NCBI GenBank assembly: GCA_016929395.1 | Contig: JAFGIX010000064.1 | Coordinates: 1 to 24,263, forward strand | Direction of reading: 5' to 3' | Length of the DNA: 24,263 bases | Source: Candidatus Zymogenus saltonus | GTDB lineage: Bacteria; Desulfobacterota; Zymogenia; Zymogenales; Zymogenaceae | Part shown: one piece after another, positions 4,475-23,786 of the stretch | Numbering within the stretch: the stretch's first letter is position 1 | Layout: each line of letters starts with the position of its first letter | Notes under the pieces: generated by a model | What the model was told of the DNA's origin: nothing | The model's database searches: none | What the model saw: the letters and a program-made list of their open reading frames with translations, nothing else | Position numbers and translations under genes: made by a program

Positions 4475-4692
4475 ACAAGTAACATCGGGCTTTTCCGGTT
4501 TCATTAAGAAAGTGACCGTTGGTTTCCCCCTTAAGCCGGAAAGAGAAATTGATAGTGATTGCAATCGACGGATCAATTATATAGAATGTTTTAGACTATT
4601 GAGGCCTGCGGCCGGTTTTCTGAATAAGATAGTGTTTAAATTAAATAGGTAGCAAATTATTTTTATCAATCCATTTTGAGGGGATTATTTTT

Positions 4693-5667
4693 ATGACCAA
4701 ACTGAAAATCGACAGGGACCTCCTCATGAGGTTTGAGAGGGGACTGGACCCCAGGAATCCCGAGGATAACGAAGTTCCCACCAAGGTTCTCGGATACGGC
4801 GAGATGTCCACGGTCTTCACCATAACTGGGGAGGGTCAAGGTGACCTCGCCTACAAGAGGATGCCCATCTTCGAGGACATGGAGGAGGCCGAGAAGTACA
4901 GGGCGGTATACAATGAGTACAACGACCTGCTGAACAAGATAGGCATCACGGTCCCCCCCTTCGATTCCGTCGTGATCGAAAACGACGACGGCCAGATCGT
5001 GATGTTCGGCGTCCAGAAGATCCTCGACCCCGCGTCAATCGCCCACAAGATCATCCACTCGATAACAGACGATGAGATCATGTTGTTGGTAAGGCTCATA
5101 TTAAGGGAGATAAAGAAGACCTTCGATTTCAACAAGAAGAACAAGAAGCTCAATATCGTGCTCGACGCCCAGATATCCAACTGGGCGGTAAAGGGATTCG
5201 ATCCCAAAAGGCCGAAGATCACCGAAAAGACCGAGTTCTTCTTCATCGACACCACGACTCCCCTCTTCAGGAAGGACGGCGTGGAGCAGCTCGATCCGGA
5301 GCTGATCTTGAGGGCGGCCCCCTCCTTTCTCCTCTGGATTGTCCGCCTGTTGTTTGTCGAGGACGTGATCTCCCGCTACTACGACTTCCACCTCTCGACG
5401 ATCGACCTGGTCGCAAATTTCTACAAGGAACAGCGCTCCGACCTGATCCCCGCCCTCATCGACCTGGCGAACGATTTCTTTGAGACGGAGGCGAAAGACC
5501 TTAAAATAGAGCCTATCACCATGAAGAAGGTCAACAGCTATTACAGGGAGGACGTGTTGATATGGCGGCTGTGGCTGTTCTTCAGAAAAGTAGACCGCTT
5601 CATCAGGACGAAGATCACGAGAAAGGGCTACCCCTTTATCCTCCCCGGCAAGATAAAGAGATACTAA
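4693..5667 (+). CDS. Hypothetical cytoplasmic protein, 324 aa, with a possible divergent protein-kinase-like motif pattern
   Basis: Clean ORF. GAGGGGA lies 8 nt upstream of the ATG. Motifs in ePK-like order: VLGYGEMSTVF (Gly-rich loop-like), AYKRMP (possible AxK), IVLDAQISNWAV (D-x4-N catalytic-loop-like), FFFIDTTTP (possible metal-binding Asp). The spacing is imperfect, so the kinase call is low-confidence. Confidence 0.7.
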   Translation: MTKLKIDRDLLMRFERGLDPRNPEDNEVPTKVLGYGEMSTVFTITGEGQGDLAYKRMPIFEDMEEAEKYRAVYNEYNDLLNKIGITVPPFDSVVIENDDGQIVMFGVQKILDPASIAHKIIHSITDDEIMLLVRLILREIKKTFDFNKKNKKLNIVLDAQISNWAVKGFDPKRPKITEKTEFFFIDTTTPLFRKDGVEQLDPELILRAAPSFLLWIVRLLFVEDVISRYYDFHLSTIDLVANFYKEQRSDLIPALIDLANDFFETEAKDLKIEPITMKKVNSYYREDVLIWRLWLFFRKVDRFIRTKITRKGYPFILPGKIKRY

Positions 5668-5860: not shown

Positions 5861-6021
5861 TATGCATATATATAGTGATACCGTTAAAGCAGATATGTAA
5901 TTTGTTGTTTGCCCCCACGGAAGCACACCCTCTCCGACCGGAAGTTGAGTCACTCAAAATTACATTTCAAATAAACTGACTTCTTAATAAACTTGCTTTT
6001 CATAACTTGAGGAACTTGACA

Positions 6022-6654
6022 ATGACAGAAGGGAAATCTCTAACTCATTTGTCTTATCGATCGGTCGTGGATGCAATAGAGGACATCTTGGGAAAAAGCG
6101 GTAAAAACTCCGTCCTGAACTTCGCCGGGTTGGGCTGGATGGTGAATAACCCGGTCGATTACGACCCCGAAGCCAGGGTCGCTTTCGATGATGTAACAAG
6201 GCTGTTTTACGGGGTCAGGGAGATCGTGGGGAATAAAGGATACGACATCATAATGTTCAGGGGGGGTGTAACCTCCGTAAAGAACATTGTAAAGCACTCC
6301 TTGCCCCTCCAAACCCTCATTACCATGAAATTAGACCCTATCGAAAAGCTAAAGTTGGGTTACCGGGCGTATATAACCAACGCAGGATACGATCCGGACA
6401 AGACGATGGAGCACTTCGGCGAGACCAGACAGATACTCATCCACAGGCCGGACTGCACGGAGTGTGAGATATACACCAAAGACAGTGAAAAACTAAAGGA
6501 ATTCAAGGAGCCTTCCTGCTCCTTTATTAAGGGCATTCTGTATGAGATCGGAAACATCTTCAAGGAAACAAAGGTGGCGGTGAATGAGGTGAAATGCAGG
6601 CTGCTGGGAGATGACGAGTGCCTCTATAAGATAGATTACGAGATCATCGGATAG
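6022..6654 (+). CDS. Cys-rich small protein with a V4R-like (putative small-hydrophobic-ligand-binding) C-terminal domain, 210 aa; paralog 1
   Basis: GAGGA lies 7 nt upstream of the ATG at 6022. The track start at 6007 is a TTG. C-terminal pattern CxxC...C...KC...GDDxC[LY]Y (DCTECEIY, PSCSF, VKCRLLGDDECLY) matches my recollection of the V4R domain (XylR/DmpR N-terminus, BchJ, COG1719). It is clearly paralogous to the next gene. Confidence 0.75.
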   Translation: MTEGKSLTHLSYRSVVDAIEDILGKSGKNSVLNFAGLGWMVNNPVDYDPEARVAFDDVTRLFYGVREIVGNKGYDIIMFRGGVTSVKNIVKHSLPLQTLITMKLDPIEKLKLGYRAYITNAGYDPDKTMEHFGETRQILIHRPDCTECEIYTKDSEKLKEFKEPSCSFIKGILYEIGNIFKETKVAVNEVKCRLLGDDECLYKIDYEIIG

Positions 6655-6822
6655 ATTTCAGCAGCGTTTAATTGACCTTGCAGGTCATTCTAAAGACGAG
6701 CTTGGGGGATCGATTTTACAAAGGGGTCTGTTTCTAAACATCTTTTTGTGCCTGCCGCAAAATGGCGCTCGCTGTCTTCTTGAACCGATATGGATATTAT
6801 CGGCAGGTCAAAGGAGGACAGG

Positions 6823-7410
6823 ATGGCCCAAGAGGGAATGGTCTCCAACATCACAATGAGATGCTCCATCGACGCCATAACCGAGATTTTGGGGGAGAAC
6901 GGGTGCAAGATAATCTTCAAGGGAGCCGGCATCCTTGACGTATTCGAGAATCCTCCCCCCTATGATTTCAATCCCTGTGTCACCGAGGGCAAGAGGGACA
7001 AAATGATTGCGGAGGTCGCAGATATTCTGGGACTCGAGGGCGCCCTGGGCGTTTGGAGACGCATAGGATTTACCGGAGCCAAATACGCGGTGGAGATAGG
7101 ACACGTCCTTGACGACAAGGAGGGACTCGAACCGGACGAGAAGTTCCTGAAGGCCCTCGAGCTGTGGAGCCTCGCCACCAGCGAGGGGAGAATAGTCATG
7201 CGCGACGACGGAAAGGCGGATTTTGACGTCTTCAACTGCCTTACCTGTATAAATTACAAATCCAAGAGGCCGATCTGCGCAACAACCGCGGGGGCGCTCC
7301 AATACATGTCGGACTGGGCCTACGGCGAGAAAAAGTATATAGTAAGGGAGATCAAGTGCAAGGCGATGGGGGACGATACCTGTTACTATACTTTGACGGA
7401 ACGGGATTAG
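6823..7410 (+). CDS. Cys-rich V4R-like small protein, 195 aa; paralog 2
   Basis: AAGGAGG at 6811-6817 lies 5 nt before the ATG at 6823. The track start at 6790 has no SD. Starting at 6823 makes the N-terminus colinear with paralog 1 (12 residues before Y/MRxxIDAIxEILG). The same five Cys are conserved (NCLTCINY, PICAT, IKCKAMGDDTCYY). Confidence 0.75.
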   Translation: MAQEGMVSNITMRCSIDAITEILGENGCKIIFKGAGILDVFENPPPYDFNPCVTEGKRDKMIAEVADILGLEGALGVWRRIGFTGAKYAVEIGHVLDDKEGLEPDEKFLKALELWSLATSEGRIVMRDDGKADFDVFNCLTCINYKSKRPICATTAGALQYMSDWAYGEKKYIVREIKCKAMGDDTCYYTLTERD

Positions 7411-7519
7411 CCGCACTTGATTAATGTCGTTGCCCCCGATTTTGAGTCTTGAGGAAATGACCCCCTCTAAAATGACACTTTAATATCAGCTGAAGACAGA
7501 AGATCAACAGTTTGCAAGG

Positions 7520-7557
7520 GGCAGGTCTCAAGAGCCGTCGCACCCCTTGAGCCTGCC
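7520..7557. promoter_or_regulatory. Inverted repeat between V4R paralog 2 and the GRE gene (ggcaggtctcaag / cttgagcctgcc, 13-nt loop)
   Basis: Arms at 7520-7532 and 7546-7557. An alternative aagggg/cccctt pairing (7515-7520 / 7543-7548) is possible. No U-tract. It sits 15 nt upstream of a -35 box. It could be an attenuator, a terminator or an operator. Confidence 0.3.
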
Positions 7558-7571
7558 GCTTTCCCCTGTCC

Positions 7572-7600
7572 TTGACTTTTGGCGCAATATCGACTATAAA
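7572..7600 (+). promoter_or_regulatory. Sigma-70-type promoter immediately upstream of the GRE gene (TTGACT-17-TATAAA)
   Basis: TTGACT at 7572-7577, a 17-nt spacer, TATAAA at 7595-7600, about 36 nt before the ATG at 7636. Confidence 0.4.
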
Positions 7601-7635
7601 CTAATTAAAAACCTGTAAACATTTGGGAGTTGACC

Positions 7636-10035
7636 ATGGAATCTGAGGCGTTAAATCTTAAAGAGAAGCTGAAGATCAAGGCGGTCAGGAACGTCAGGCG
7701 GGGATACGCGGAGGACGAGTCGGCGAGAGGCATGTACCGCCCCGGGATCACGCTGGACATACAGAGGTCGCGGCTGTTGACCGAATCGTACAGGGAGACC
7801 GAGGACGAGCCGATGGTGATGAGGCGGGCCAAGGGTCTCTACAACATCCTCTCAAAGATGGACATCTACATCCAGGACTGGGAGAGGATAGTAGGAAACA
7901 ACGTATCAACGCCTGAAGGCCTCTACTTTCCCATAGACATGAACTGGCGCTCAGTAAAGAGGGTGGTCAGCGGAAAGGAGGGGGAGGGTCTCCTTGACGA
8001 CGCCGGCAGGGAGGAGCTGGGGGAACTGGTCGATTACTGGCGCGGAAGATCGATGAGCGACATCCAGCAAAACACCTTCACCGGCGACGAGCTGAAGTAC
8101 TGGCGGTACGAGGGGACCTTCATGTGGACGCACTGGTCGGAGCTCGGAATCCCGAACTACGAAAAGATATTTAGGGTAGGCCTCAAGGGTATCATCGAGG
8201 AGGCGAGGAACCGCCTCGACGAGCTTGACCGGATTGTGCCTCTCGATTACGTCGATCAGAAGGAGTTTTTGCAGGCCGTTATAATATCTCTCAATGCAGT
8301 GATAAAGTTCGCCCACCGCTACGCCGAGCTTGCGGTAGAATTGCTCCTTAAGGCCAAAGATCCCGAGGACAGGCGGAGGCTTGAAAAAATTCAAAAGAGT
8401 TGCCTGTGGGTGCCGGAGAATCCCCCGCGAAACCTGGTCGAGGCCCTCCAGTCCTTCTTCTTCATACACGTCGTTCGATACATCGAGTATTCCACGCTGG
8501 GAATCGGGATTCGGTTCGACAAGATATTCGGCCCCTACTACGAGAGGGAGCTGAAAGAGGGAGCGATCACGAGAGAGGAGGGGCTGAAGCTTCTTCAGTT
8601 CCTCTGGGTCAAGTTTCACGAGCTGGGGCTCGTTTACTCCCCCATGCTGACCGCCGTATACGGAGGCGTGGCGTCCCTTCAGGCGATCACCCTTGGGGGT
8701 GTGGACGAAAACGGGGACGACGTCACAAACGAGATGACCTATCTCGTCCTGGATACGGCCGAGAGCATGAAGACGCTGGAGCCGAGCATCGCCCTGAGAT
8801 ACCACGACGGGACGCCGGACAAACTCCTCTCGAAGACGATAGATGTGATTCGTACCGGTATCGGCTATCCCTCCCTCTTCAACGACAAGTCGATTCTCCC
8901 CACCCTTACGGGGTGGGACGTCCCGGAGAGGGACGCCAGGGACTACGCGATCACCGGCTGCGTCTACCTGGAGCTTCCGGGCAAGAACATAGCCAGGAGG
9001 GCCTACGGAGGGATCCTCTTGACCAAGTGCCTCTGGTGGGCCCTTCACATGGGTAAAAATCCGGACACCGGGGAGCAGTGGGGCGCCCCCACCCCCGACC
9101 CGAGGTCCTTCAAATCGGCCGACGACCTGATGGACGCCTATCTCGAGCAGGTGCGCTTCTTCTTCGGGAAACTCAACAAGATCGAGAACACCTGCCGTAA
9201 CCTGTACGAAAAATACCTCCCCAGGCCATTCTACTCCGCCCTTCTGGACGGGTGCATCGAGAAGGGGATGGATTCGAGAAAGTGGGCTTATCCGTCGAGC
9301 GTCCACGACATCTGCATCATAATGGGCCCCACCAACACGGCCGACTCGATAACGGCGATCAAGAAGGTCGTCTTCGAGGACAAAAAGGTAACGATGGACG
9401 GGCTTATCAGGGCGATGGACAAGAACTGGGAGGGTTATGAAGAGATAAGACAGCTGATGCTGAACGCTCCTAAGTACGGAAACGACGACGATTACGCCGA
9501 CGAGATCGCTGTCCGGGTCCACCACGAGACCGCCCGGGTGATGGCGGAGTTCACCGACCGCTTCGGGAACCCCTGCCGTGGCGACGGGAGCGCCGTATCC
9601 GCCACCTACGGCGTCGCCATAAACACCCCCGCAACCCCGGACGGCAGGAGGGACGGGGAGGCCTTCAGCGACGCGACCCTCTCCCCGATTCAGGGGAGAG
9701 ACAGGAAGGGCCCAACGGCCGTCCTGAAATCCGCCTCAAAGATAGACACCACCAAGACCTACAACCACCTCCTGAACCAGAAGTTCCCCCCCTCGGCCCT
9801 GGAGGGGGAGATGAAGGAGGTGTTTAAGTCGTACATCAGGACATGGGGAGAACTCGGGGTCAGCCACGTCCAGTTCAACGTGGTAGACAAGGAGACTCTT
9901 TTGGACGCCCAGGAGAATCCCGGAAAATACCAGGACCTCATCGTCAGGGTGGCGGGGTACAGCGCCTATTTCGTCGACCTGAGCCGCGGACTCCAGGATT
10001 CGATCATATCGAGGACGCAGCAGGCCTTCAGCTGA
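7636..10035 (+). CDS. Glycyl radical enzyme (pyruvate formate-lyase superfamily, single-Cys PFL2/dehydratase-like class), 799 aa; substrate unknown
   Basis: GGGAG lies 6 nt upstream of the ATG at 7636. The track start at 7630 is a TTG. The C-terminal glycyl-radical fingerprint RVAGYSAYF has its Gly codon at 9955-9957 (residue 774, 25 from the end, the same offset as Gly734 in E. coli PflB). The mid-protein loop AITGCVYLELPG has a single candidate thiyl Cys (codon 8959-8961, residue 442). The size and N-terminal region fit GDH/CutC/HypD-like GREs rather than PFL itself. Confidence 0.9.
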   Translation: MESEALNLKEKLKIKAVRNVRRGYAEDESARGMYRPGITLDIQRSRLLTESYRETEDEPMVMRRAKGLYNILSKMDIYIQDWERIVGNNVSTPEGLYFPIDMNWRSVKRVVSGKEGEGLLDDAGREELGELVDYWRGRSMSDIQQNTFTGDELKYWRYEGTFMWTHWSELGIPNYEKIFRVGLKGIIEEARNRLDELDRIVPLDYVDQKEFLQAVIISLNAVIKFAHRYAELAVELLLKAKDPEDRRRLEKIQKSCLWVPENPPRNLVEALQSFFFIHVVRYIEYSTLGIGIRFDKIFGPYYERELKEGAITREEGLKLLQFLWVKFHELGLVYSPMLTAVYGGVASLQAITLGGVDENGDDVTNEMTYLVLDTAESMKTLEPSIALRYHDGTPDKLLSKTIDVIRTGIGYPSLFNDKSILPTLTGWDVPERDARDYAITGCVYLELPGKNIARRAYGGILLTKCLWWALHMGKNPDTGEQWGAPTPDPRSFKSADDLMDAYLEQVRFFFGKLNKIENTCRNLYEKYLPRPFYSALLDGCIEKGMDSRKWAYPSSVHDICIIMGPTNTADSITAIKKVVFEDKKVTMDGLIRAMDKNWEGYEEIRQLMLNAPKYGNDDDYADEIAVRVHHETARVMAEFTDRFGNPCRGDGSAVSATYGVAINTPATPDGRRDGEAFSDATLSPIQGRDRKGPTAVLKSASKIDTTKTYNHLLNQKFPPSALEGEMKEVFKSYIRTWGELGVSHVQFNVVDKETLLDAQENPGKYQDLIVRVAGYSAYFVDLSRGLQDSIISRTQQAFS

Positions 10036-10202: not shown

Positions 10203-11243
10203 ATGATGAAAAAGCTGTACATTTTATTTTTTCTCGTTATTTTTATCATTACCCTTTGCGCCCAAACAATGGCGGATGAGGCCGTAGGCTTTAAAGTCGT
10301 CACGGTTTCGGTTGGGGGCGAATATGAAATTTTATGCGGGGTATGGTACCCGGCCGCTGGAGGAAACGCCAGGGCTGCCTACGACTTCGGAAACGGCGCG
10401 GTTACGGGAAAGGCGATCAAAAACGCCGCCCCTAACAAAGATCTCGGCCCGCTTCCGATAATCGTATACTCCCACGGCTATTCGGGCTGCTCCCACTCGT
10501 CCGCCTTTCTTGTGGAGTCTCTTGCGGGGTCGGGATTCATCGTGATCGCCCCCGACCACACCGACGACCTGAAGGCGTGCAGCTTAAAGGAGGGCTTCGT
10601 AAGGGAGCGGGGATACGGATCCAAGCTCGCAAAAAGGGCGATACGATTAAGCCGGGCGCTCTCCAGCGGCGAATACGACACCGGCCACTTCAGATACAGG
10701 TACATGGAGGTGTCGGCCGCAATAGACTGGATAGTTAATGCGGGCGGTGATCCCGCGTCCCCCTTTTACGGCCTCGTGGACCCGGAAAAGATCGGGGCCG
10801 TCGGCCACTCCCTGGGGGCGTACAGCGTGCTTGCCGTATCGGGGGTAATCGATATCGCCCGCGATCCGAGGATCAGGGCGGTCGTTGCGATGTCGGGGCC
10901 GGGGGACAGGGTCTTTGCCTGCGACAAGATGACCGGTGTTAAGGTCCCCGCCATGCTGATGTACGGCGAAGACGAGAGGGGGCGAAAGGAAGAGGGATTA
11001 AACCTCCAGTATCGGTGTCTTGCTGAGCCGAAGTTCCTCCTTGTGATCTCGGGGGCGGATCACCTGACGTTTGCGGAGAGCAGTTTTAGGCGCAGAGACA
11101 GGGCCGCCGAGGAGAAGAGGCACACCGTTATAGCGAGGTACGTGGTTGTCTTCTTCGAGTATTTCATCAAGGGCCAAGAGGGGGCGAAGGGGGTGCTCAA
11201 AGTGCGGAATCCGGGCCTCGAACGGTACGATTTTAACTTTTGA
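10203..11243 (+). CDS. Secreted alpha/beta-hydrolase (dienelactone-hydrolase / PAF-acetylhydrolase / cutinase-like), 346 aa
   Basis: N-terminal signal peptide MMKKLYILFFLVIFIITLCAQTMA. Nucleophile elbow GHSLGA. VYSHGYSG oxyanion region. AGGAG lies 6 nt upstream. Confidence 0.8.
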   Translation: MMKKLYILFFLVIFIITLCAQTMADEAVGFKVVTVSVGGEYEILCGVWYPAAGGNARAAYDFGNGAVTGKAIKNAAPNKDLGPLPIIVYSHGYSGCSHSSAFLVESLAGSGFIVIAPDHTDDLKACSLKEGFVRERGYGSKLAKRAIRLSRALSSGEYDTGHFRYRYMEVSAAIDWIVNAGGDPASPFYGLVDPEKIGAVGHSLGAYSVLAVSGVIDIARDPRIRAVVAMSGPGDRVFACDKMTGVKVPAMLMYGEDERGRKEEGLNLQYRCLAEPKFLLVISGADHLTFAESSFRRRDRAAEEKRHTVIARYVVVFFEYFIKGQEGAKGVLKVRNPGLERYDFNF

Positions 11244-11307
11244 CATTTATCTCAAAGGAAAGTCGATCGATTCCAGACAAATCTCAAAAAAATTCCCTTA
11301 GGGGAGT

Positions 11308-11336
11308 TTACATATCCCCTCCATTAATGGTAGAAT
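11308..11336 (+). promoter_or_regulatory. Sigma-70-type promoter (TTACAT-17-TAGAAT) upstream of the lipoprotein gene
   Basis: TTACAT at 11308-11313, a 17-nt spacer, TAGAAT at 11331-11336, 35 nt before the ATG at 11372. Confidence 0.35.
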
Positions 11337-11371
11337 GCCCGAATTGTTCAGGGACCTATCTATAGCCAAGG

Positions 11372-12271
11372 ATGTTTAGAAACAAGTCAAAAACAGGACT
11401 GCTAAAGAGGGATGCCGAAGGCGCCCCGGCTGGCGCCCTTGTCTTATCCGCGATCTTTATACTCATCCTGTTTTCCTTCGTCTCATGCTCCGGGGGAGGG
11501 GAGAAAGTCGAGGACACCGCCGGTTCCCCGGGCACGGAAACTGGATTGACTCCGGAGACGGGGGAAGGCAGCACAGGCAATATTGACGATATGGTCGATG
11601 TGGGAGTCTTGAAGGGGGAGGAACTCTCCGGCCTTCGGCTCACCGCAAAGACGAGGCTGACCTACCTTGTCAACGGCGCCGTTGAGGAGGCCGAGGAGGG
11701 ATTCGTCGCAATCGACGGAAACAAGACAAGGTACGAGACGCCGAAGTGCGGGGAGCTTGGCTACAGCCACGTCACGGTCGACAGGGGGGACCTCAAGCTG
11801 ACATTTGTCCTCATACCGGAGAGGAGACGTTACTTCGAGATCAAGAGAGAAACAGGGAACGAGCGAAACAAAGACAATGCCGGGGACTATTCATCTTCGG
11901 GCAAAACCCCTTCCGGCCAGAGCCTCATCTTCGGCGGGACACTTGAGCCGTTCGGCCCCTCCGCAAACGAGGTCTCGAGGAAGTCCCTCGGAGTCGAGGA
12001 GGTTCGGGGTTACGCCTGCGAGAAATTCAGGGTCAAGGAGGAGTTTCTCGACGGAAGCTTCACCCGCTACACCGAATGGCTGGCCGCGGACCTGAATCAC
12101 CTCCCGATAAAGACGGAATACAGGCTCAAGGCGGGCTCCGACCTGTATATCACCAGGTGGGAGCTGATCGATATAAAGATGGGGGCACCCTCCCCCGATC
12201 TCTTCAACGTCCCCGATGGATACGTCAGGGTCAATAACATCTCCGAGGCGCTGAAGGAGGTAGCTCCCTGA
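11372..12271 (+). CDS. Hypothetical lipoprotein (possibly LolA/LppX-like beta-fold), 299 aa
   Basis: Signal peptide ending FSFVSCSGGG (lipobox-like), followed by a Gly/Thr/Glu-rich linker and a beta-rich domain. No catalytic motif recognised. Confidence 0.7.
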   Translation: MFRNKSKTGLLKRDAEGAPAGALVLSAIFILILFSFVSCSGGGEKVEDTAGSPGTETGLTPETGEGSTGNIDDMVDVGVLKGEELSGLRLTAKTRLTYLVNGAVEEAEEGFVAIDGNKTRYETPKCGELGYSHVTVDRGDLKLTFVLIPERRRYFEIKRETGNERNKDNAGDYSSSGKTPSGQSLIFGGTLEPFGPSANEVSRKSLGVEEVRGYACEKFRVKEEFLDGSFTRYTEWLAADLNHLPIKTEYRLKAGSDLYITRWELIDIKMGAPSPDLFNVPDGYVRVNNISEALKEVAP

Positions 12272-15308: not shown

Positions 15309-15337
15309 TTGATAAAGTCGTAAACATGTCCTACAAT
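15309..15337 (+). promoter_or_regulatory. Sigma-70-type promoter (TTGATA-17-TACAAT) for the sigma-54 activator gene
   Basis: TTGATA at 15309-15314, a 17-nt spacer, TACAAT at 15332-15337. The -10 is embedded in the palindrome cCTACaatacaGTAGg (15330-15345), suggesting autoregulation. Confidence 0.35.
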
Positions 15338-15378
15338 ACAGTAGGATAGTAGGTTAGATCATACCAAACGGTAGCTTT
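15330..15378. promoter_or_regulatory. Cluster of palindromic sites upstream of the activator gene: CTAC-N6-GTAG (15330-15345) and TACC-aaac-GGTA (15362-15373), the latter inside a 20-bp sequence repeated exactly at 16990-17009
   Basis: Direct reading. tcataccaaacggtagcttt at 15359-15378 is identical to 16990-17009. Confidence 0.4.
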
Positions 15379-15442
15379 TGGGCAAAACTCCATTTAAAGG
15401 TCGATCCAATCGAATTTAAGTCGGCTTTTTAAGGAAGAAGAG

Positions 15443-17005
15443 ATGGAGACATCAACGGAATATTCAAGGACAAGCAGGGAAACCACGGAGCTGAGCCTCA
15501 TCTACGAAATCAGCAAGACCCTCGACTCCAGCATGGAGATCGAGGATGTCCTGGGCCCTGTCCTCGAAAAGATGGCCACGCACATGGGGATGGTTCACGG
15601 CGCCATCACGCTTCTCGAGAGGCAGACCGGCGACATCTTCATCGACACCGCCTACGGCCTCTCCGATTCCCAGATGAAAAGGGGGAGATACAAGCTGGGC
15701 GAGGGAGTAACCGGAAGAGTCGTCCAGACCGGAAAGCCGGTTGTCGTCTCGCGAATCTCGGAGGAGCCCCAGTTCCTGAACAGGACCGGAGCGGGGAGGA
15801 GCTTCGCCGACAAGGACGTCTCCTTCATCTGCGTCCCCATAAAGCTGGAAAACGAGGTTATCGGCGCCCTGAGCTTCGACAGGCCCTACAGCGAAACGGC
15901 CCCCCTCGATGACGACATCCGAATACTCTCCATCATATCCTCCATGATAGCCCAGGCCGTCCACTTGAGGAGATCCGCCCAGGAGGAGCGCCAGAGACTC
16001 CTTGACGAGAATGTCAGGCTGAAGGAGGAGCTCAAGGACCGCTTTAAGCCCGACAACATCATAGGAAACTCCAAGGCGATGCAGGAGGTCTATGACCTGA
16101 TCATGCGGGTCTCCAAGACCAACGCGACGGTGCTGATCAAGGGGGAGAGCGGCACTGGAAAGGAGCTTGTCGCCCACGCCATCCATTTTCACAGCCAGAG
16201 GGCGAACAGCCCCTTCATAAAGGTCAACTGCGCGGCGCTGCCGGAGACGATCATAGAAAGCGAGCTCTTCGGCCACGAAAAGGGGGCCTTCACCGGCGCC
16301 CTCAAGACGAAGAAGGGGAGATTCGAGCTTGCCCACGGCGGGACCCTGTTCCTTGACGAGGTGGGGGACCTCTCCCAGGAGACCCAGATCAAGCTCTTGA
16401 GGGTCCTTCAGGAGCGGGAGTTCGAGAGGGTCGGGGGGACAGATACGATCAAGGTGAACGTCAGGATAATAACCGCCACAAACAGGGACATCGAGGCGCT
16501 GATAGAAAAAGGGAGCTTCAGGGAGGACTTATACTTTCGTCTGAACGTCTTTCCCATCCACATACCCCCGCTGAGAGACAGGAAAACGGACATCCTTCTT
16601 CTGGCCGACCACTTCGCCGAGAGGTACGGAAAAGAGAACAACAAGGCCATCAGGCGAATATCGACCCCCGCCATCGACATGTTGATGTGCTACCACTGGC
16701 CAGGAAACGTCCGTGAGCTCGAAAACACCATAGAGCGGGCCGTGATCCTGAGCAACAACAACGTTATCCACGGCCACCACCTCCCCCCCACCCTCCAGAC
16801 CGCCGAGGCCACGGGGACCCCCGTAAAGGCGACGCTTGGAGACGCCCTCGATTCGCTGGAGAGGGAGATGCTCCTGGACGCCCTTAAGTCCTCGAGGGGA
16901 AACAGGGCCGCCGCTGCGAGGCAGCTCGGCATATCGGAGAGGCTGATGGGGATACGCGTGAAAAAACACGGGATCGAGCCTGGAAGATTTCATACCAAAC
17001 GGTAG
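15443..17005 (+). CDS. Sigma-54-dependent transcriptional activator (bEBP) with N-terminal GAF domain, AAA+ core and C-terminal Fis-type HTH (NifA-like architecture), 520 aa
   Basis: Walker [15 protein letters not shown] motif in [15 protein letters not shown]. Arg-finger region. C-terminal [21 protein letters not shown]. The N-terminal roughly 170 aa is GAF-like. AAGGA lies 7 nt upstream. Confidence 0.9.
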
Positions 17006-17035
17006 CTTTATTAAGCTATTCCTACCATAAGGTAG
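16990..17035. promoter_or_regulatory. Putative enhancer (UAS) for the amtB sigma-54 promoter: TACC-aaac-GGTA (16993-17004, overlapping the activator stop codon) plus cTACC-ataa-GGTAg (17022-17035)
   Basis: Two TACC-N4-GGTA inverted repeats about 155-195 bp upstream of the -24/-12 element, the usual bEBP distance. The first lies within the 20-bp repeat shared with 15359-15378. Confidence 0.4.
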
Positions 17036-17186
17036 CATTTTTAAGCCTGACCGCCCCCATAATCCGCCAAACTTTCAAGATATTGGATCAATCCAAAAAA
17101 ACCGGATTTCATTTAAAACTATTAAATCAATAATATCAAGCCCTTATAAAACATCACCTCACTTTTAACGGCGACCTCCCGCCGCT

Positions 17187-17201
17187 TGGCACAAAACTTG
17201 C
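17187..17201 (+). promoter_or_regulatory. Sigma-54 (-24/-12) promoter TGGCAC-aaaac-TTGC driving amtB-glnK(-flotillin-glnA-nadE?)
   Basis: TGGCAC at 17187-17192, a 5-nt spacer, TTGC at 17198-17201. Exact match to the RpoN consensus. About 105 nt upstream of the amtB ATG and downstream of a bEBP gene. Confidence 0.6.
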
Positions 17202-17307
17202 GATAGTATCTCAATCAAGATTGAAAAGGGATATGCCGCAGGCATATCTCCCTATAGTGGCTCGCTACATAGGAAATCGGAACGGAATAACTTAAAGGAG
17301 GTTGTTT

Positions 17308-18828
17308 ATGAGAAGACTATTTGTTGGAAAGGCGATTCTCATGGTGATGCTTCTGCTGTTTACGGTACTCATTCCCATTTTCCCTGCGGCCGTGGCTCAG
17401 GAAGAGGGGGCGCCGGCGACGGAAGTGGTTACCACCGCAGAGGACACCGCTTCAGAGGCGGGAGATGCGGCGGAAGGGGCGGAGACCCCCACGGGAGAGG
17501 TCCCTCCTCCGGCGGTCGTCGATGAAGCCGCGGAAGACGGCGCCGACACCGCCGCGGAAGATAAGACCGAAGAGGCGACATACGTTACAAAGGCCGCCCT
17601 CGATACGGTCTGGGTGCTGATAGCCGGTGTGCTGGTCATGTTCATGCAGGCGGGGTTCGCAGTTTTAGAGGCGGGATTCGTCCGCGCCAAGAACTCCCTC
17701 AACGTCGTTATGAAGAACATAATGGATTTCTGCTTTGCAACCATAACGTACTGGGCGGTAGGCTTTGCGATCATGTTCGGGGCGGGGAACGCCCTGTTCG
17801 GCACCAGCGGCTTCTTCCTGAGCGATCCGACGGGGACGACGTTCGACTCGCTTAGCTGGACCATCGTCCCTCTCGAGGCGAAGTACTTCTTTCAGCTCGT
17901 CTTTTGCGCAACTTCGGCGACCATCGTTGCCGGGGCGGTGGCGGAGCGCACGAAGTTTGTAGCCTACATCATCTATTCCATCGTCATCTCCGCCGTGATA
18001 TACCCGGTGATCGGCCACTGGATCTGGGGAGGGGGCTGGCTGGGAAGCCTCGGAATGCTCGACTTTGCGGGATCGACCGTAGTTCACTCAACCGGCGGGT
18101 GGCTCTCCCTTGCGGGCGTCATCATCCTGGGACCAAGAGTGGGCAAGTATAAATCGGACGGGACACCAAAGGCCATTACGGGACACAACATACCCCTTGC
18201 CGCCCTGGGAGCCTTCATCCTATGGTTCGGGTGGTTCGGATTCAACGCGGGGAGCACAATGGCTGCTGACGCAGAGGATATCGCCCATATCGTAACCACC
18301 ACCAACCTCTCGGCCGGCGCCGGGGGGATTGCGGCGATGTTCACCTCATGGTGGATGTTTAAAAAGCCGGATATAAGCATGGCGATCAACGGCGCCCTGG
18401 CGGGGCTTGTGGGAATAACCGCCCCATGCGCCTTCGTGACCGCCGGCGGGGCCATCTGGATCGGGCTCTTTGCCGGGGTGCTTGTGGTCCTGGCGATACT
18501 CTTTCTTGACAAGGTCCTGAAGATCGACGATCCCGTGGGCGCCATCGCGGTCCACGGCGTAAACGGGGCCTGGGGCACCCTAGCCGTTGGGATCTTCGCC
18601 AAGGAGGGCGGTCTTCTCTACGGCGGCGGCTTCAAGCTGTTGGGTATCCAGGCGCTGGGCGTCGTCTCCGTGTTTGCCTTTGCGATGACCACGGGTCTTC
18701 TCCTCTTTTACGTGATCAAGCACCTGGTGGGATTCAGGGTTTCGAGGGAAGAGGAGCTGAGAGGCCTTGACATCGAAGAGCACGGCATGGAGTCGTATCC
18801 GAGCTTTCAGATCTTCACCACGGAATAA
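17308..18828 (+). CDS. amtB: Ammonium transporter Amt/MEP family, with signal peptide and an about 70-aa acidic Ala/Glu/Thr-rich N-terminal extension before TM1
   Basis: AAAGGAGG lies 6 nt upstream of the ATG at 17308. The track start at 17302 is a TTG. Amt signature DFAGSTVVHSTGG, the twin-His region, 11 TM helices. Followed directly by glnK. Confidence 0.9.
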   Translation: MRRLFVGKAILMVMLLLFTVLIPIFPAAVAQEEGAPATEVVTTAEDTASEAGDAAEGAETPTGEVPPPAVVDEAAEDGADTAAEDKTEEATYVTKAALDTVWVLIAGVLVMFMQAGFAVLEAGFVRAKNSLNVVMKNIMDFCFATITYWAVGFAIMFGAGNALFGTSGFFLSDPTGTTFDSLSWTIVPLEAKYFFQLVFCATSATIVAGAVAERTKFVAYIIYSIVISAVIYPVIGHWIWGGGWLGSLGMLDFAGSTVVHSTGGWLSLAGVIILGPRVGKYKSDGTPKAITGHNIPLAALGAFILWFGWFGFNAGSTMAADAEDIAHIVTTTNLSAGAGGIAAMFTSWWMFKKPDISMAINGALAGLVGITAPCAFVTAGGAIWIGLFAGVLVVLAILFLDKVLKIDDPVGAIAVHGVNGAWGTLAVGIFAKEGGLLYGGGFKLLGIQALGVVSVFAFAMTTGLLLFYVIKHLVGFRVSREEELRGLDIEEHGMESYPSFQIFTTE

Positions 18829-18843
18829 AAAAGGAGGTTAACA

Positions 18844-19185
18844 ATGAAACTTATCGTGGCGATAATACAGCCCCATAAACTCCCCGACGTCAAGCAGGCC
18901 CTCTACGAAAACGAGATTTATCTGATGACGGTATCAAACGCCCTCGGCTCCGGGAGGCAACTGGGATACAAAGAGGTCTACAGGGGTGTCCCCGAGGAAG
19001 TAAATCTTTTGAAAAAAATCAAACTCGAGATTGCGGTGAATGAAGAGTACGTGGAGCCGACGATCGACGCCATCATCAAGGGGGCGAAGACCGGAAACAT
19101 CGGTGACGGGAAGATATTCGTCCTCGACCTGCCGCAGGTCATCAGGATCAGGACGGGGGAGAGGGGAAGGTCGGCAATAGGTTAA
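18844..19185 (+). CDS. glnK: PII nitrogen regulatory protein (GlnK-type, amtB-linked), 113 aa
   Basis: [20 protein letters not shown]..., a T-loop [14 protein letters not shown], a C-terminal GDGKIFV. AAGGAGG lies 6 nt upstream. The position aligned to E. coli Tyr51 (RGAEY) reads RGVPE, so there is no uridylylatable Tyr. Confidence 0.9.
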
Positions 19186-19242: not shown

Positions 19243-19271
19243 TTGACAAAAACAGTAAGGAGGCTTATAAT
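19243..19271 (+). promoter_or_regulatory. Perfect-consensus sigma-70-like element TTGACA-17-TATAAT whose -10 overlaps the flotillin start codon
   Basis: TTGACA at 19243-19248, a 17-nt spacer containing the flotillin SD TAAGGAGG (19256-19263), then TATAAT at 19266-19271. The ATG is at 19270-19272. A transcript from it would start inside the ORF, so its function is unclear. Confidence 0.25.
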
Positions 19272-20556
19272 GGATGTGCTGAGTCTAAAACCGGAAACGA
19301 TCGGTATATTGATAGCGATTGCCATAATTGCAATCGCCGTGATCATTGCGTTTATCAAGGCTAACCTTCATGTGTGTCCCCCGAACGAGCTTCTCATTTT
19401 CTCGGGCAAAAAGAGGAAGTTGAAGGACGGCACGATAGTGGGGTACAGGGCAATCAAGGGCGGAAGAGGACTCAAGATCCCGATTATCGAGTCGGTATCG
19501 AGGATGCCTCTCAATACCTTTACGGTGGATATGGAGCTGATCGGGGCGCTGACAAACGGGATCATCCCGATAAACATCGAGGCGATGGCAAACGTGAAGG
19601 TGGCCGGAAGCGAGTCGGAGGGAATCAACAACGCCCTGGAGCGTTTCCTCGGCAGGAACATGGGGGAGATATCTCAGGTCGCCAGGGAGACGATAGAGGG
19701 CTCCCTTCGGGGTGTCCTTGCCACACTGTCCCCCGAGGAGGCAAACCAGAAGAGGCTGGAGTTCGCCGAAAAGGTGTCCGACGAGGCAAGCGCTGACTTC
19801 AGGAAATTGGGGTTGGTCCTCGACACCTTCAAGATAAAGAACATATCCGACCCCGAGGGGTACATGGATAATATAGGGCGCAAGAAGAATGCGGAGGTCA
19901 AGAGGGACGCCATCATAGCGGAGGCGAAAACCGAGGCCGAATCGAGAATCGCCACGGCGGAGTCAAAGAGGAAGGGGAGCATAGCCGAATACGAGGCGGA
20001 GCTTGCTGTAATCGAGGCTGAAAACAGCTACAAGATAAAGAAGGCCAAGCTGGCCGAAGAGGTCAACAGGGCGGAGTCCAGGGCCAGCGTCGCGGGAGAC
20101 ATAGCGAGGGTGACCGAGGAGGAGAAGCTCGAAGACGCCAGGATAAAGATGAACAAGAAGAAATACGAGGCGGAAACCGTGGTCCCGGCCCAGGCGGACA
20201 AAGAGGCGAAGATCCTCTACGCCAAGGGAAAGGCGGCGCGGATCGTCGAGGACGGCAAGGCGATGGCGGAGTCTGTCAAACTCCTCAGGGAGGAATGGGA
20301 GAAGGACGAGACGAGAGAGCTGTTCCTCATCCAGCAGCTTCCCATGATCCTGGACAAGATAACGAGCGTCGTCAAGGATAACCTGAGGGTGGACAAGCTC
20401 ACGATCTTGGACAACGGCGACGGAAACGGCTTACCGACGCTTGTCAAGGGGCTCACGGGTTCGACTGCAGCCTTTTTCGAGGGGATAAAGAGCGCCACCG
20501 GACTCGACATCCCGGAGATCCTTCAACCCAAGAAGGGGAGTAAGAGCGCCGGTTAA
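19270..20556 (+). CDS. Flotillin-like SPFH/band-7 membrane-scaffold protein (YqiK/FloT-like), about 428 aa
   Basis: TAAGGAGG lies 6 nt upstream of the ATG at 19270. The track start at 19243 is a TTG. N-terminal TM helix IGILIAIAIIAIAVIIAFI, an SPFH domain, then a long Glu/Ala/Lys-rich coiled coil (AEAKTEAESRIATAESKRKG...) and a C-terminal flotillin tail. Confidence 0.85.
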   Translation: MDVLSLKPETIGILIAIAIIAIAVIIAFIKANLHVCPPNELLIFSGKKRKLKDGTIVGYRAIKGGRGLKIPIIESVSRMPLNTFTVDMELIGALTNGIIPINIEAMANVKVAGSESEGINNALERFLGRNMGEISQVARETIEGSLRGVLATLSPEEANQKRLEFAEKVSDEASADFRKLGLVLDTFKIKNISDPEGYMDNIGRKKNAEVKRDAIIAEAKTEAESRIATAESKRKGSIAEYEAELAVIEAENSYKIKKAKLAEEVNRAESRASVAGDIARVTEEEKLEDARIKMNKKKYEAETVVPAQADKEAKILYAKGKAARIVEDGKAMAESVKLLREEWEKDETRELFLIQQLPMILDKITSVVKDNLRVDKLTILDNGDGNGLPTLVKGLTGSTAAFFEGIKSATGLDIPEILQPKKGSKSAG

Positions 20557-20618: not shown

Positions 20619-20661
20619 AATAACTGGGATTCAAGGATTTAATCCTAAAATCCCAGTTATT
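20619..20661. promoter_or_regulatory. 43-bp palindrome upstream of glnA (aATAACTGGGATT-caaggatttaatcctaa-AATCCCAGTTATt); candidate operator for a nitrogen regulator, or a structured terminator/leader
   Basis: 12-bp arms at 20620-20631 and 20649-20660. The centre holds nested GGATT/AATCC repeats. It ends immediately before a -10-like TACAAT (20661-20666) and 39 nt before the glnA ATG. Confidence 0.3.
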
Positions 20662-20699: not shown

Positions 20700-22028
20700 A
20701 TGATTGTAAACACAAAGAGAGACGTGCTAAAAATCGTCAAGGAGAGGAACGTCAGCTTCATCCAGTTCTGGTTTACGGACATACTCGGATTTCTGAAGAG
20801 CTTTGCCGTCACCCCGTCCGAGCTGGAGGAGGGATTGTCCGAGGGAATGGGCTTTGACGGCTCTTCTATCGAGGGCTTTGCGAGGATCGAAGAGAGCGAC
20901 ATGATCGCAAAGCCGGATCCATCGACCTTTCAGTTCCTTCCCTGGAGGGACGAGGAAAGGCCGGTGGCAAGGATGTTCTGCGACATACTCGAGCCCACGG
21001 GCGAGCCTTACGCGGGCGATCCGAGACATGCATTCAAGAAGCTCCTCCAGAGGGCGAAGGACGAGGGCTATATATATTATATAGGCCCAGAGCCTGAGTT
21101 CTTCTATTTTGCCAGCAAGGACGAGCCGAAGACCCTGGATTCGGGCGGGTATTTCGACGCGACCCCCCTGGATCTGGCTTCGATGCTCAGGAGGGAGACG
21201 ATCTTCGCGCTCCAGAAGTTCGGGATCGACATAGAGTACAGCCACCACGAGGTCGCGCCGAGCCAGCACGAGATCGATCTCAGGTTCGACGAGGGCCTCA
21301 GGATGGCCGACAAGTTCATGACCCTAAGAACCACCGTCAAGGAGATCGCGAGACTCAACGGGTACCACGCAACGTTCATGCCCAAGCCGATCTTCGGGGA
21401 GAACGGGAGCGGGATGCACGTCCACCAGTCCCTCTTCAGGGATGACAGAAACGCCTTTTTCGACGCCAACGATCCGATGAGCCTTTCGGCCGAGGGGAAG
21501 AGCTACATAGCGGGAATCCTGAAGCACGCCAGGGAGATAACGGCCGTGTGCAACCAGTGGGTGAACTCCTACAAGCGCCTCGTCCCCGGCTACGAGGCCC
21601 CGGTCTACGTCAGCTGGGCGAGGCGAAACAGGTCGACGATGGTGAGGGTGCCCCAGTACAAGCCCGGAAAGGAGAAGGCCACGAGGATGGAGTTTCGCTC
21701 GCCGGACCCCGCCGCCAACCCGTACCTGGCCTTTGCGGTGATGCTGGCCGCGGGTCTCAAGGGCATCAAGGAGGGCTACACCCTTCCGGCTCCGATCGAG
21801 GAAGACCTGTATGAATTCAGCCCGGAGAAGAGGAGGGAGAGGGGTATCACCGAGCTTCCGGGAAACCTCTTCGAGGCGGTGGGCGAGCTCGAAAAGAGCG
21901 AGCTTGTAAGGGACGCCCTTGGCGATCACATATTTTACAAGTTTATCGAGAACAAGAAAATAGAGTGGGACAGGTACAGAATACACGTCAGCAAATACGA
22001 GATAGACAACTACCTCCCCATCATTTAA
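20700..22028 (+). CDS. glnA: Glutamine synthetase type I (probably GSI-alpha, not adenylylated), 442 aa
   Basis: GS signatures FDGSSIEGF and KPIFGENGSGMHVHQSLF, a beta-grasp N-domain. The region aligned to the E. coli adenylylation site NLYDLP reads LPGNLFEAVG (Phe, not Tyr). Confidence 0.92.
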   Translation: MIVNTKRDVLKIVKERNVSFIQFWFTDILGFLKSFAVTPSELEEGLSEGMGFDGSSIEGFARIEESDMIAKPDPSTFQFLPWRDEERPVARMFCDILEPTGEPYAGDPRHAFKKLLQRAKDEGYIYYIGPEPEFFYFASKDEPKTLDSGGYFDATPLDLASMLRRETIFALQKFGIDIEYSHHEVAPSQHEIDLRFDEGLRMADKFMTLRTTVKEIARLNGYHATFMPKPIFGENGSGMHVHQSLFRDDRNAFFDANDPMSLSAEGKSYIAGILKHAREITAVCNQWVNSYKRLVPGYEAPVYVSWARRNRSTMVRVPQYKPGKEKATRMEFRSPDPAANPYLAFAVMLAAGLKGIKEGYTLPAPIEEDLYEFSPEKRRERGITELPGNLFEAVGELEKSELVRDALGDHIFYKFIENKKIEWDRYRIHVSKYEIDNYLPII

Positions 22029-22058
22029 TCTTTTACCAACCGTTTTTTGGAAGGGAAA

Positions 22059-23786
22059 ATGGGCATTTTGAGAATCGCCCAGGCACAGATAAACACAACC
22101 GTTGGCGACCTTGGCGGCAACTCCGCCAAGGTCGCCTCTTACATTAAAAGGGCCGTAGACGCCGATGCGGACATCGTCACGTTCCCGGAACTCGCCATAA
22201 GCGGATACCCCCCGGAAGACATCCTCTTGAAGCCGCAATTTCTGAGGGACTGCAGAAAGGCGATCGAGAGCGTCTTCGAGTCCACGGACGGGATCGCCGC
22301 GGTCGTCGGCTTTCCCGACTTCGCAGGAGACAAGGTCTTCAACGCCGCCGCCCTTATTTATGACCGAAAACTGCTGGCGATATACCACAAGGTGGAGCTT
22401 CCCAACTACGGGGTGTTCGACGAGAAGCGCTATTTCACTAGCGGAAACGAGCCCCTGACCTTTCTCCTGAACGGCAAGCGCCTCATGGTGACAGTATGCG
22501 AGGATATCTGGATAGAGGGAAGCCCGGTGGAAAATTTCGCATTAGACAACGACGTGGACATCGCCCTCAACCTCTCCGGCTCCCCCTTCCACGCCGGGAA
22601 GATTGAGATCAGGAAAAAGATAGCGTCAAGCTTCGCCGTCAGGACTAACACCTTCGTCTGTTACAACAACCTCGTCGGCGGCCAGGACGAACTCGTATTC
22701 GACGGGACGAGCCTCGTAGTGAACAGGGAGGGAAACGTCATAGACATGGGGAAGAGGTTCGAAGAAGACCTCTTCATCACCGACTTCGCGGATACGGAGA
22801 TCGACACCGCCGTCCCGTTTCCGAGGAGGGAGGCCCAAGATGCGGAGATCGTTATTGAAACGGAGGGAGGCAAAAGAAAGACGGCTGAAGACAGGCCGAT
22901 CCCCGAGATCGCCAGAAGGAAGTATGAAAATCACGGCGAAATAGACGAGATATGGAGGGCCCTCGTCCTGGGAACCGGAGATTACGTGAGGAAAAACGGC
23001 TTCAAGAAGGTCGTGATCGGCCTCTCCGGCGGGATAGACTCCACGCTGACCGCCGCCGTGGCGGTAGCCGCCTTAGGCAAAGAAAACGTCATCGGCGTCA
23101 CGATGCCGTCCATGTACACCTCGGATGAGACATTCAAAGACTCTGACCTGACGGCGAAGAACCTCGGAATCAGGCTGATAACAGTGCCCATAGAGCCGAT
23201 ATTCATATCGTATCTCGATCTCCTCGAAGGCCCCTTCGGCGAGGGGGAGCCGGGGGTCGAGGCGGAGAACCTCCAGGCGAGAATCAGAGGGAATATCCTC
23301 ATGGCCCTTTCCAACAGGTTCGGCTGGCTCGTCCTGACCACCGGCAACAAGAGCGAGATGGCGGTCGGCTACGCGACCCTCTACGGAGACATGGCGGGCG
23401 GCTTCGCCGTTATCAAGGACGTCCCCAAGACGACCGTATATAAAGTCTCGGAATACGTCAACAAGATCGAAGGGAGAGAGGTAATCCCTAAGAGCGTCAT
23501 CGAGCGACCCCCTACCGCGGAGCTGAGGCCCGACCAGAAGGACGAGGACTCACTCCCCCCCTACGAGGTACTCGATCCGATCCTGTCCGCCTACGTAGAG
23601 GGAGACGAAGACCCGAAAGAGATCGCGAAAAGAGGATATGACATCGAGACCGTGCTTGACGTCGTGAAGATGGTCGATCGCAACGAATACAAGAGGAGGC
23701 AGGCCCCGCCTGGGGTAAAGATCACGCCTAAGGCCTTCGGCAGGGACAGGAGGCTCCCCATCACGAACAGGTACCCGAAGAGGTGA
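22059..23786 (+). CDS. nadE: Glutamine-dependent NAD+ synthetase (N-terminal nitrilase/CN-hydrolase glutaminase domain plus C-terminal NAD synthetase domain), about 575 aa
   Basis: GGAAGGGA SD before the ATG at 22059. The track start at 22047 is a TTG. CN-hydrolase features FPELAISGY and VTVCEDIW. PP-loop GLSGGIDST. 30-nt gap from glnA, so probably co-transcribed. Confidence 0.9.
   Translation: MGILRIAQAQINTTVGDLGGNSAKVASYIKRAVDADADIVTFPELAISGYPPEDILLKPQFLRDCRKAIESVFESTDGIAAVVGFPDFAGDKVFNAAALIYDRKLLAIYHKVELPNYGVFDEKRYFTSGNEPLTFLLNGKRLMVTVCEDIWIEGSPVENFALDNDVDIALNLSGSPFHAGKIEIRKKIASSFAVRTNTFVCYNNLVGGQDELVFDGTSLVVNREGNVIDMGKRFEEDLFITDFADTEIDTAVPFPRREAQDAEIVIETEGGKRKTAEDRPIPEIARRKYENHGEIDEIWRALVLGTGDYVRKNGFKKVVIGLSGGIDSTLTAAVAVAALGKENVIGVTMPSMYTSDETFKDSDLTAKNLGIRLITVPIEPIFISYLDLLEGPFGEGEPGVEAENLQARIRGNILMALSNRFGWLVLTTGNKSEMAVGYATLYGDMAGGFAVIKDVPKTTVYKVSEYVNKIEGREVIPKSVIERPPTAELRPDQKDEDSLPPYEVLDPILSAYVEGDEDPKEIAKRGYDIETVLDVVKMVDRNEYKRRQAPPGVKITPKAFGRDRRLPITNRYPKR

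Follow-up and report, generated by a model that had tools for sequence, protein, structure and literature searches.

Paired palindromes flanking a GAF-type sigma-54 activator gene: a predicted amtB–glnK enhancer and autoregulatory operator in Candidatus Zymogenus saltonus

At the enteric glnA and glnL genes, NtrC activates nitrogen genes from paired palindromes upstream of a sigma-54 promoter, and NtrC sites that lie over the sigma-70 promoters glnAp1 and glnLp repress them, giving autoregulation. Here we analyse a stretch of 24,263 nucleotides (nt) from Candidatus Zymogenus saltonus (contig JAFGIX010000064.1; hereafter the window) in which the gene for a GAF-type sigma-54 activator is flanked on both sides by pairs of one palindromic motif, with the ammonium-transporter gene amtB and the P-II gene glnK directly downstream. 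In the literature on characterised NifA-like regulators of amtB we found only the DVU1949 prediction and Leptospira EbpA. The DVU1949 regulon of the Desulfovibrionales was predicted by comparative genomics (Kazakov et al. 2015, PMC4641369); DVU1949 is a single-component activator with amtB–glnB, glnA and gltB as predicted targets in addition to autoregulation, and its predicted sites, TTACA-N4-TGTAA, are often paired 30–32 bp apart and lie 100–300 bp upstream of the gene (PMC4641369). For Leptospira interrogans, the EbpA–RpoN work of Hu et al. 2017 is summarised in PMC12655853, according to which EbpA binds upstream of amtB and was found experimentally to be required for amtB transcription and low-nitrogen growth.

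The elements on which the argument turns are listed below; L081–L087 are loci of relatives that are introduced further on.

15309 to 15337, forward strand: predicted sigma-70-type promoter of the regulator gene, TTGATA (15309–15314), a 17-bp spacer and TACAAT (15332–15337), with 10 of 12 matches in a promoter scan
15331 to 15344, no strand: site 1, CTACAATACAGTAG, palindrome over the -10 hexamer, proposed operator; ccTAC-N6-GTAgg kept in L081–L087
15361 to 15374, no strand: site 2, ATACCAAACGGTAG, 30 bp after site 1, near +23 of the predicted transcript; proposed as an operator
15443 to 17005, forward strand: regulator gene, 520 aa, with GAF, sigma-54 AAA+, AAA lid and HTH_8 domains in its translation (Pfam)
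16992 to 17005, no strand: site 3, ATACCAAACGGTAG, proposed distal enhancer site, within the second copy of a 20-mer repeat (16990–17009)
17022 to 17035, no strand: site 4, CTACCATAAGGTAG, proposed proximal enhancer site, 30 bp after site 3; kept in L081–L084
17187 to 17201, forward strand: sigma-54 promoter TGGCAC-N5-TTGC (-24/-12), TGGCACAAAACTTGC, from a consensus search
17308 to 18828, forward strand: amtB (ATG at 17308; listed open reading frame from 17302), Pfam Ammonium_transp 1e-124
18844 to 19185, forward strand: glnK/P-II gene, Pfam P-II 1e-26

We propose that the four palindromes are, in all likelihood, dimer sites of the GAF/AAA+/HTH_8 activator whose gene they flank, with sites 3 and 4 serving as a predicted enhancer for amtB–glnK and sites 1 and 2 as a predicted autoregulatory operator. 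The activator has a sigma-54 AAA+ domain (PF00158, 1.6e-75) in whose translation the Walker A motif GESGTGKE and the GAFTGA loop are intact, and the helix–turn–helix (HTH) at its C-terminus is PF02954 HTH_8 at residues 469–503. An earlier note on this DNA, made from its letters, had claimed an exact 20-bp direct repeat on both sides of the activator gene, and its coordinates are confirmed: the 20-mer TCATACCAAACGGTAGCTTT has two exact copies in the window, at 15359–15378, which contains site 2, and at 16990–17009. By our arithmetic (about N^2/2 x 4^-20), such a repeat is expected by chance about 3e-4 times in 24 kb. The pattern TACC-N4-GGTA (TACCNNNNGGTA) has three matches in the window, at 15362, 16993 and 17023, against 0.16 expected, and 0 of 100 shuffles reached three. 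The note had also set beside the upstream 20-mer a palindrome of another kind, cCTACaatacaGTAGg at 15330–15345. Its overlap with TACAAT (15332–15337) stands, but it is not a separate palindrome, because alignment by centre shows 15331–15344 to carry the motif of the other three sites. All four sites match (C/A)TAC-N6-GTAG, a motif that the window holds only in the two places flanking the regulator gene, and they form two pairs (15331–44/15361–74 and 16992–17005/17022–35) with exactly 30 bp from centre to centre in each. At about three helical turns, this spacing would put both members of a pair on one face of the DNA.

The downstream pair is well placed for an enhancer. TGGCACAAAACTTGC is the window's only match to the sigma-54 consensus when up to one mismatch is allowed, and upstream of it, measured from their centres, site 3 lies at 188 bp and site 4 at 158 bp, within the range of about 80–250 bp in which paired enhancer sites are expected and at the distance that had been proposed for this pair. 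The upstream pair is differently situated: no GG-N10-GC element occurs in the intergenic region before the regulator gene, so that in this genome sites 1 and 2 would not serve positive autoregulation as an enhancer. Site 1 covers the -10 hexamer of the sigma-70 promoter and site 2 falls at about +23; a bound pair should keep RNA polymerase out and so make the regulator repress its own gene.

Phylogenetic footprinting supports this assignment. The closest homologues of the regulator are metagenomic (P0001, P0002, P0003 and P0005, with 92%, 87%, 85% and 74% protein identity), and in their loci, L081–L084, the gene order regulator–amtB–glnK–SPFH–glnA is kept. In both aligned intergenic regions the conserved islands are the -35 element, site 1 with TAC[AG]AT, sites 2–4 and the -24/-12 element, whereas the spacers between them diverge or hold indels. 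TTGACA or TTGATA is followed after 17 bp by TAC[AG]AT in all four relatives; the position of ATACCAAA[CTA]GGTA in site 2 is invariant; and the sigma-54 promoter is identical in L081 and L082 and reads TGGCATGATACTTGC in L083 and TGGCAACAAATTTGC in L084. The alignment of these loci holds no further conserved palindrome between the regulator gene and the sigma-54 promoter. All four sites, the upstream copy included, are thus in position across relatives of 74–92% identity. We assign the binder from adjacency and co-conservation, and on this footing the earlier suggestion that the motif is the activator's binding site and the enhancer of amtB–glnK is well supported by comparison of sequences. Autoregulation through the sigma-70 promoter likewise gains from the comparison: the -35/17 bp/-10 geometry is also seen by eye in L085–L087, and in eight genomes the -10 hexamer doubles as site 1's left half. 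The repressive sign given to it earlier is drawn from the position of the sites.

Beyond this clade, homologues of about 70% identity bear Planctomycetota or Desulfomonile "NifA" labels, the best matches among GTDB genomes are spirochaete metagenome-assembled genomes (62–68%) and a Treponema (52%), and relatives at about 50–58% come from metagenome-assembled genomes labelled Acidobacteriota, Bacteroidota, Deltaproteobacteria (Desulfobacterota) and Verrucomicrobiota. The order amtB–glnK is common to L081, L083–L085, L087, L003 and L013. In spirochaete loci, CTACA-N4-TGTAG stands both ahead of the regulator gene and at its end, over the stop codon or immediately behind it, often as 30-bp pairs. 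Across 25 orthologous loci, TAC-N6-GTA reaches 4.45 per kb in the zones that flank the regulator gene (about 220 bp on its upstream side and 130 bp on its downstream side) versus 0.18 per kb elsewhere, a 24-fold enrichment with a Poisson P of ~1e-41, a figure that the AT-rich intergenic composition inflates somewhat. When such sites lie no more than 120 bp apart in these loci, the spacing is exactly 30 bp in 14 of 18 pairs and 31 bp in a further 2. The motif first put forward, TACC-N4-GGTA, is refined: the conserved core, as aligned here, is TAC-N6-GTA with C/G flanks, and the inner C/G (TACC..GGTA) is a preference of the window's clade.

Further sites or pairs precede nitrogen-assimilation genes in the relatives: a second amtB–glnK in L085, glnA and an upstream amtB in L086, and amtB and an unidentified gene in L087. 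The pairs at the second amtB of L085, glnA of L086 and amtB of L087 stand about 70–130 bp upstream of recognisable sigma-54 promoters. We also scanned metagenomes for TACC-N4-GGTA pairs 30 bp apart, which gave 80 hit loci. A sigma-54-like promoter lies within 300 nt in 5 of them, against about 0.4 expected by our arithmetic, and four of these five (L091, L102, L105 and L164) have the full CTACC..GGTAG form. In L091 the site adjoins another orthologue of the regulator, again over the stop codon; in L164 it precedes a GS-like gene with no regulator adjacent. These loci appear to give partial support at the level of a regulon, and with the relatives (L085 to L087) they bear out the expectation that the motif would recur upstream of other sigma-54 nitrogen promoters.

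The position of site 3 is unusual in itself. The second 20-mer copy encodes the closing residues F H T K R and holds the TAG stop (17003–17005), and site 3 overlaps the regulator's four final codons together with its stop, where the window reads caT ACC AAA CGG TAG. The corresponding tail is cgT ACC/ACT AAA CGG TAG in L081–L083, agT ACC AAA AGG TAG in L084, cgT ACC GGC GCG TAG in L086, cgT ACC ATT TCG TAA in L087, cgT ACA AAA ATG TAA in the Treponema locus L013 and cgT ACC GAC TGG TAA in L091, and the overlap of site and stop is seen in all of these. The stop codon embedded in the enhancer of the next operon, as the earlier note had described it, is accordingly real and kept in relatives. The base before ACC is T in 8 of 8 loci (the window and seven relatives), though the residue before Thr is H, R or S; a constant third base under a varying residue is what constraint on DNA, and not on protein, predicts. 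In a test made on proteins only, 80 of the 120 closest homologues end in T-x-x-stop. Among these 80, none has a last residue without an NNG codon, against a background of 22.7% (18 expected; P ~1e-9), and Met is the last residue in 14. Exactly half of the 120 (60/120) are 520 aa long. These statistics suggest that the right half-site (G TAR) consists of the third base of the last codon and the stop across much of the family. Taken together, the alignments and the tails indicate that the overlap is ancient and constrained at the DNA level. A bolder reading would make the last four codons and the stop a dual-coding element older than the divergence of several phyla. On this reading the activator, assembled where its own gene ends, might halt RNA polymerase short of the stop codon, so that transcripts would be truncated or lack a stop and a second autoregulatory loop would act after initiation, in addition to the operator at the promoter. 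The evidence bears on the overlap and its constraint, and roadblocking falls outside it; we regard this extension as decidedly improbable.

On the preferred reading, activator dimers would bind the palindromes (consensus CTAC[C]-N4-[G]GTAG) through HTH_8. Sites 3 and 4, at about -215 and -185 from the predicted transcription start, would nucleate the active oligomer, and DNA looping, possibly with an IHF-type bend, would bring it to the sigma-54 RNA polymerase at 17187–17201. When fixed nitrogen is scarce, the activator would open the amtB–glnK promoter and probably also serve SPFH–glnA–nadE. Nitrogen status would presumably be sensed through the GAF domain, with 2-oxoglutarate and/or the operon's own P-II protein as possible signals, and a co-regulated P-II protein would close a feedback loop.

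Several observations weigh against this circuit as drawn. Recognition-helix residues show no clean pattern with the preference for TACC or TACA inner bases. In the window, a search ahead of glnA showed neither a further sigma-54 promoter nor a further copy of the motif. The metagenome scan returned mostly noise (tandem repeats and GGTACC-type or TTACC palindromes), with about 5 of the 80 loci informative, and in two of these, L091 (~4600–4710) and L105 (~3990–4065), the sigma-54-like promoter begins some 31 nt past the nearest CTACC..GGTAG site, a shorter distance than for a classical enhancer and much shorter than the roughly 150 bp of the window. Site 4 with the T-run directly after it, where a terminator-like match falls, also resembles a weak terminator.

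The first of these points would suit a different binder, an unlinked nitrogen regulator acting as global repressor or co-activator, with the adjacent activator using other sites: recognition-helix differences do not follow the motif variants, any repressor could use a pair placed over a sigma-70 promoter as sites 1 and 2 are, and the adjacent activator was assigned from adjacency and co-conservation. Yet the sites are inherited together with the regulator gene, on both of its sides, across Spirochaetota, Planctomycetota and Desulfomonile; the pairs stand at enhancer distance from sigma-54 promoters, which depend on an AAA+ activator; the stretch from gene to promoter holds no further conserved palindrome; and in most close homologues one site is fused to the regulator's own stop. 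We consider a separate binder unlikely. The terminator-like match raises another possibility, that the palindromes act mainly as RNA hairpins with U-runs that terminate or attenuate the regulator transcript, the upstream copy being a leader attenuator. T-rich tracts follow sites 2, 3 and 4, and 16985–17050 folds at -12.6 kcal/mol, but the stems are only 4–5 bp, site 4 alone reaches -5.5 kcal/mol, and the longer fold has a z-score of -1.55, with 14 of 200 shuffles folding as well. Site 1, moreover, coincides with the -10 hexamer, ahead of where any transcript would start; the equivalent pairs in L085–L087 and L164 precede promoters and not gene ends; and a strict 30-bp phasing belongs to faces of DNA, not to RNA. 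A mainly RNA-level function is thus very hard to credit, and a secondary role of site 4 and its T-run in terminating the regulator transcript is possible.

The earlier note had itself offered an alternative, a recombination scar around a mobile regulator cassette. As weighed here, the repeated 20-mer would be left by recombination or insertion, for instance as a target-site duplication or an att-like repeat, and an exact 20-mer that brackets a single gene does invite that thought. The relatives contradict it: at 74–92% identity they keep the gene, its place and its neighbours, yet their two copies have only 13, 7, 13 and 12 exact bases in common (L081–L084), the 20-bp exactness being particular to the window genome. 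One copy, moreover, is inside coding sequence, no integrase or transposase gene is nearby, and the core of the repeat is a palindrome also present, diverged, at 17022–17035 and 15331–15344. We rejected the scar and the mobile cassette, to which we give almost no probability, since relatives without the long repeat have the same synteny. With so few common bases in the relatives, the 20-bp repeat is better seen as a by-product of two near-consensus sites whose flanks happen to match in the window genome. The palindromes are best read as dimer sites of the activator that they flank.

Four further features lie downstream of the enhancer pair.

17134 to 17146, forward strand: candidate IHF-type bending site TATCAAGCCCTTA, matching WATCAANNNNTTR, about 40 bp upstream of the -24 element and between enhancer and promoter
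19243 to 20556, forward strand: SPFH/Band7 gene (Pfam; synteny in L081, L083 and L084)
20700 to 22028, forward strand: glnA (Pfam; synteny in L081, L083 and L084)
22047 to 23786, forward strand: glutamine-dependent nadE (Pfam; synteny in L081, L083 and L084)

The IHF consensus is WATCAANNNNTTR. TATCAAGCCTTTA of the candidate site is present in L081 and L082 and absent in L083 and L084, and an IHF-type site between enhancer and promoter is a weak prediction. SPFH–glnA–nadE are possibly in the same transcription unit or regulon as amtB–glnK. An SPFH/Band7 membrane-scaffold gene is unexpected in a nitrogen-assimilation cluster; it is kept between glnK and glnA in the clade (4218–5504 in L081, 4188–5471 in L083 and 6203–7468 in L084). 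The stretch 17230–17248 of the amtB leader, downstream of the sigma-54 promoter and ahead of the start codon, is an 8-bp hairpin or palindrome, GATATGCC-gca-GGCATATC; it is kept in L081 and L082 with changes in both arms (GTC/GAC in L082). It could be an element of RNA stability or regulation, or an operator for another protein; an Rfam search of the window, this hairpin included, gave no match to a known family of RNA. Ahead of glnA, a gap of 143 bp holds a perfect 13-bp inverted repeat, AATAACTGGGATT ... AATCCCAGTTATT (20619–20661), around a second palindrome, aggatttaatcct. In the Planctomycetes relative L086, a stand-alone HTH_8 protein of 138 aa (11038–11454) is encoded between glnA and nadE and might compete for the same sites. 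The remaining genes of the window encode an amidohydrolase, glycosyltransferases, V4R proteins, a glycyl-radical enzyme and others; at 6007–10035, two V4R-domain proteins lie beside the glycyl-radical enzyme (PFL-like, 801 aa), which points to an anaerobe and is unrelated to the palindromes.

For a very widespread family, with thousands of homologues in uncultured Planctomycetota, Desulfobacterota, Spirochaetota and other groups, the assignment offers a testable motif, pairs of (C)TAC-N6-GTA(G) spaced by 30 bp, together with a likely regulon that comprises amtB–glnK, glnA and probably nadE. The site fused to the regulator's own stop is, in addition, a clean natural example of a cis-regulatory element that constrains the C-terminal tail of a protein.

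Members of this family are commonly named NifA, with which the regulator has the GAF/AAA+/HTH_8 architecture in common. It scores 551.4 bits with the NCBIfam model TIGR01817 (nifA; cut-off 528.85), in a match that covers only profile positions 3–438 of 534 and stops short of the NifA linker and HTH. No nif genes occur in the window or in L081–L087, where the neighbours are amtB, glnK and glnA; the upstream activator sequence TGT-N10-ACA has 0 matches in the window; and a true NifA that adjoins nifH (L019) is 44% identical to the regulator. We rejected NifA membership despite the score above cut-off, there being no nif context and no TGT-N10-ACA. The name "nif-specific transcriptional activator NifA" is carried by homologues in Planctomycetota and Desulfomonile records (P0017, P0018, P0035, P0048 and P0120). 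Given the partial profile match and the absence of nif genes and of TGT-N10-ACA, naming these amtB-linked regulators NifA is probably a systematic over-annotation, and correcting it would improve the inference of nitrogen metabolism from metagenomes.

DVU1949, like the regulator described here, is a sigma-54 activator without a receiver domain that is predicted to control amtB and glnA as well as itself, and its 12–16 bp AT-spaced palindromes have the same geometry. The motifs differ, TTACA-N4-TGTAA against CTACC-N4-GGTAG (CTACA-N4-TGTAG in the spirochaete orthologues), with ACA/TGT as the conserved bases of one and CTAC/GTAG of the other. Its DNA-binding domain is 37% identical to that of the window's regulator (15/41), belongs to the classical NifA type (..GWIQ..LGLTPRQMGYR..) and differs in the signature of its recognition helix, and for this reason orthology is not established; DVU1949 also lies in an operon with DVU1952 and iorAB, whereas the window's regulator adjoins amtB. 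EbpA, compared through its description in the summary cited above, is a GAF-type sigma-54 activator of amtB, as is proposed here, but it is FhlA-like and has two GAF domains, unlike the window's regulator. NtrC differs in kind: it is a response regulator that is phosphorylated, has a receiver domain and works with a partner kinase, whereas the regulator has a GAF N-terminus in place of the receiver, scores 370.8 with TIGR01818 (NtrC) against a cut-off of 558.6 and has no kinase gene near it in the Pfam annotation of the window; the NtrC motif, TGCACC-N5-GGTGCA, is also distinct from CTACC-N4-GGTAG. The working principle proposed here is nevertheless that of NtrC, with paired enhancer sites and autoregulatory sites. 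Enhancer-dependent activation combined with autorepression is itself a textbook circuit, and what has some originality here is the assignment of motif and regulon to a mis-named family and the deeply conserved use of coding sequence and stop codon as half of an enhancer.

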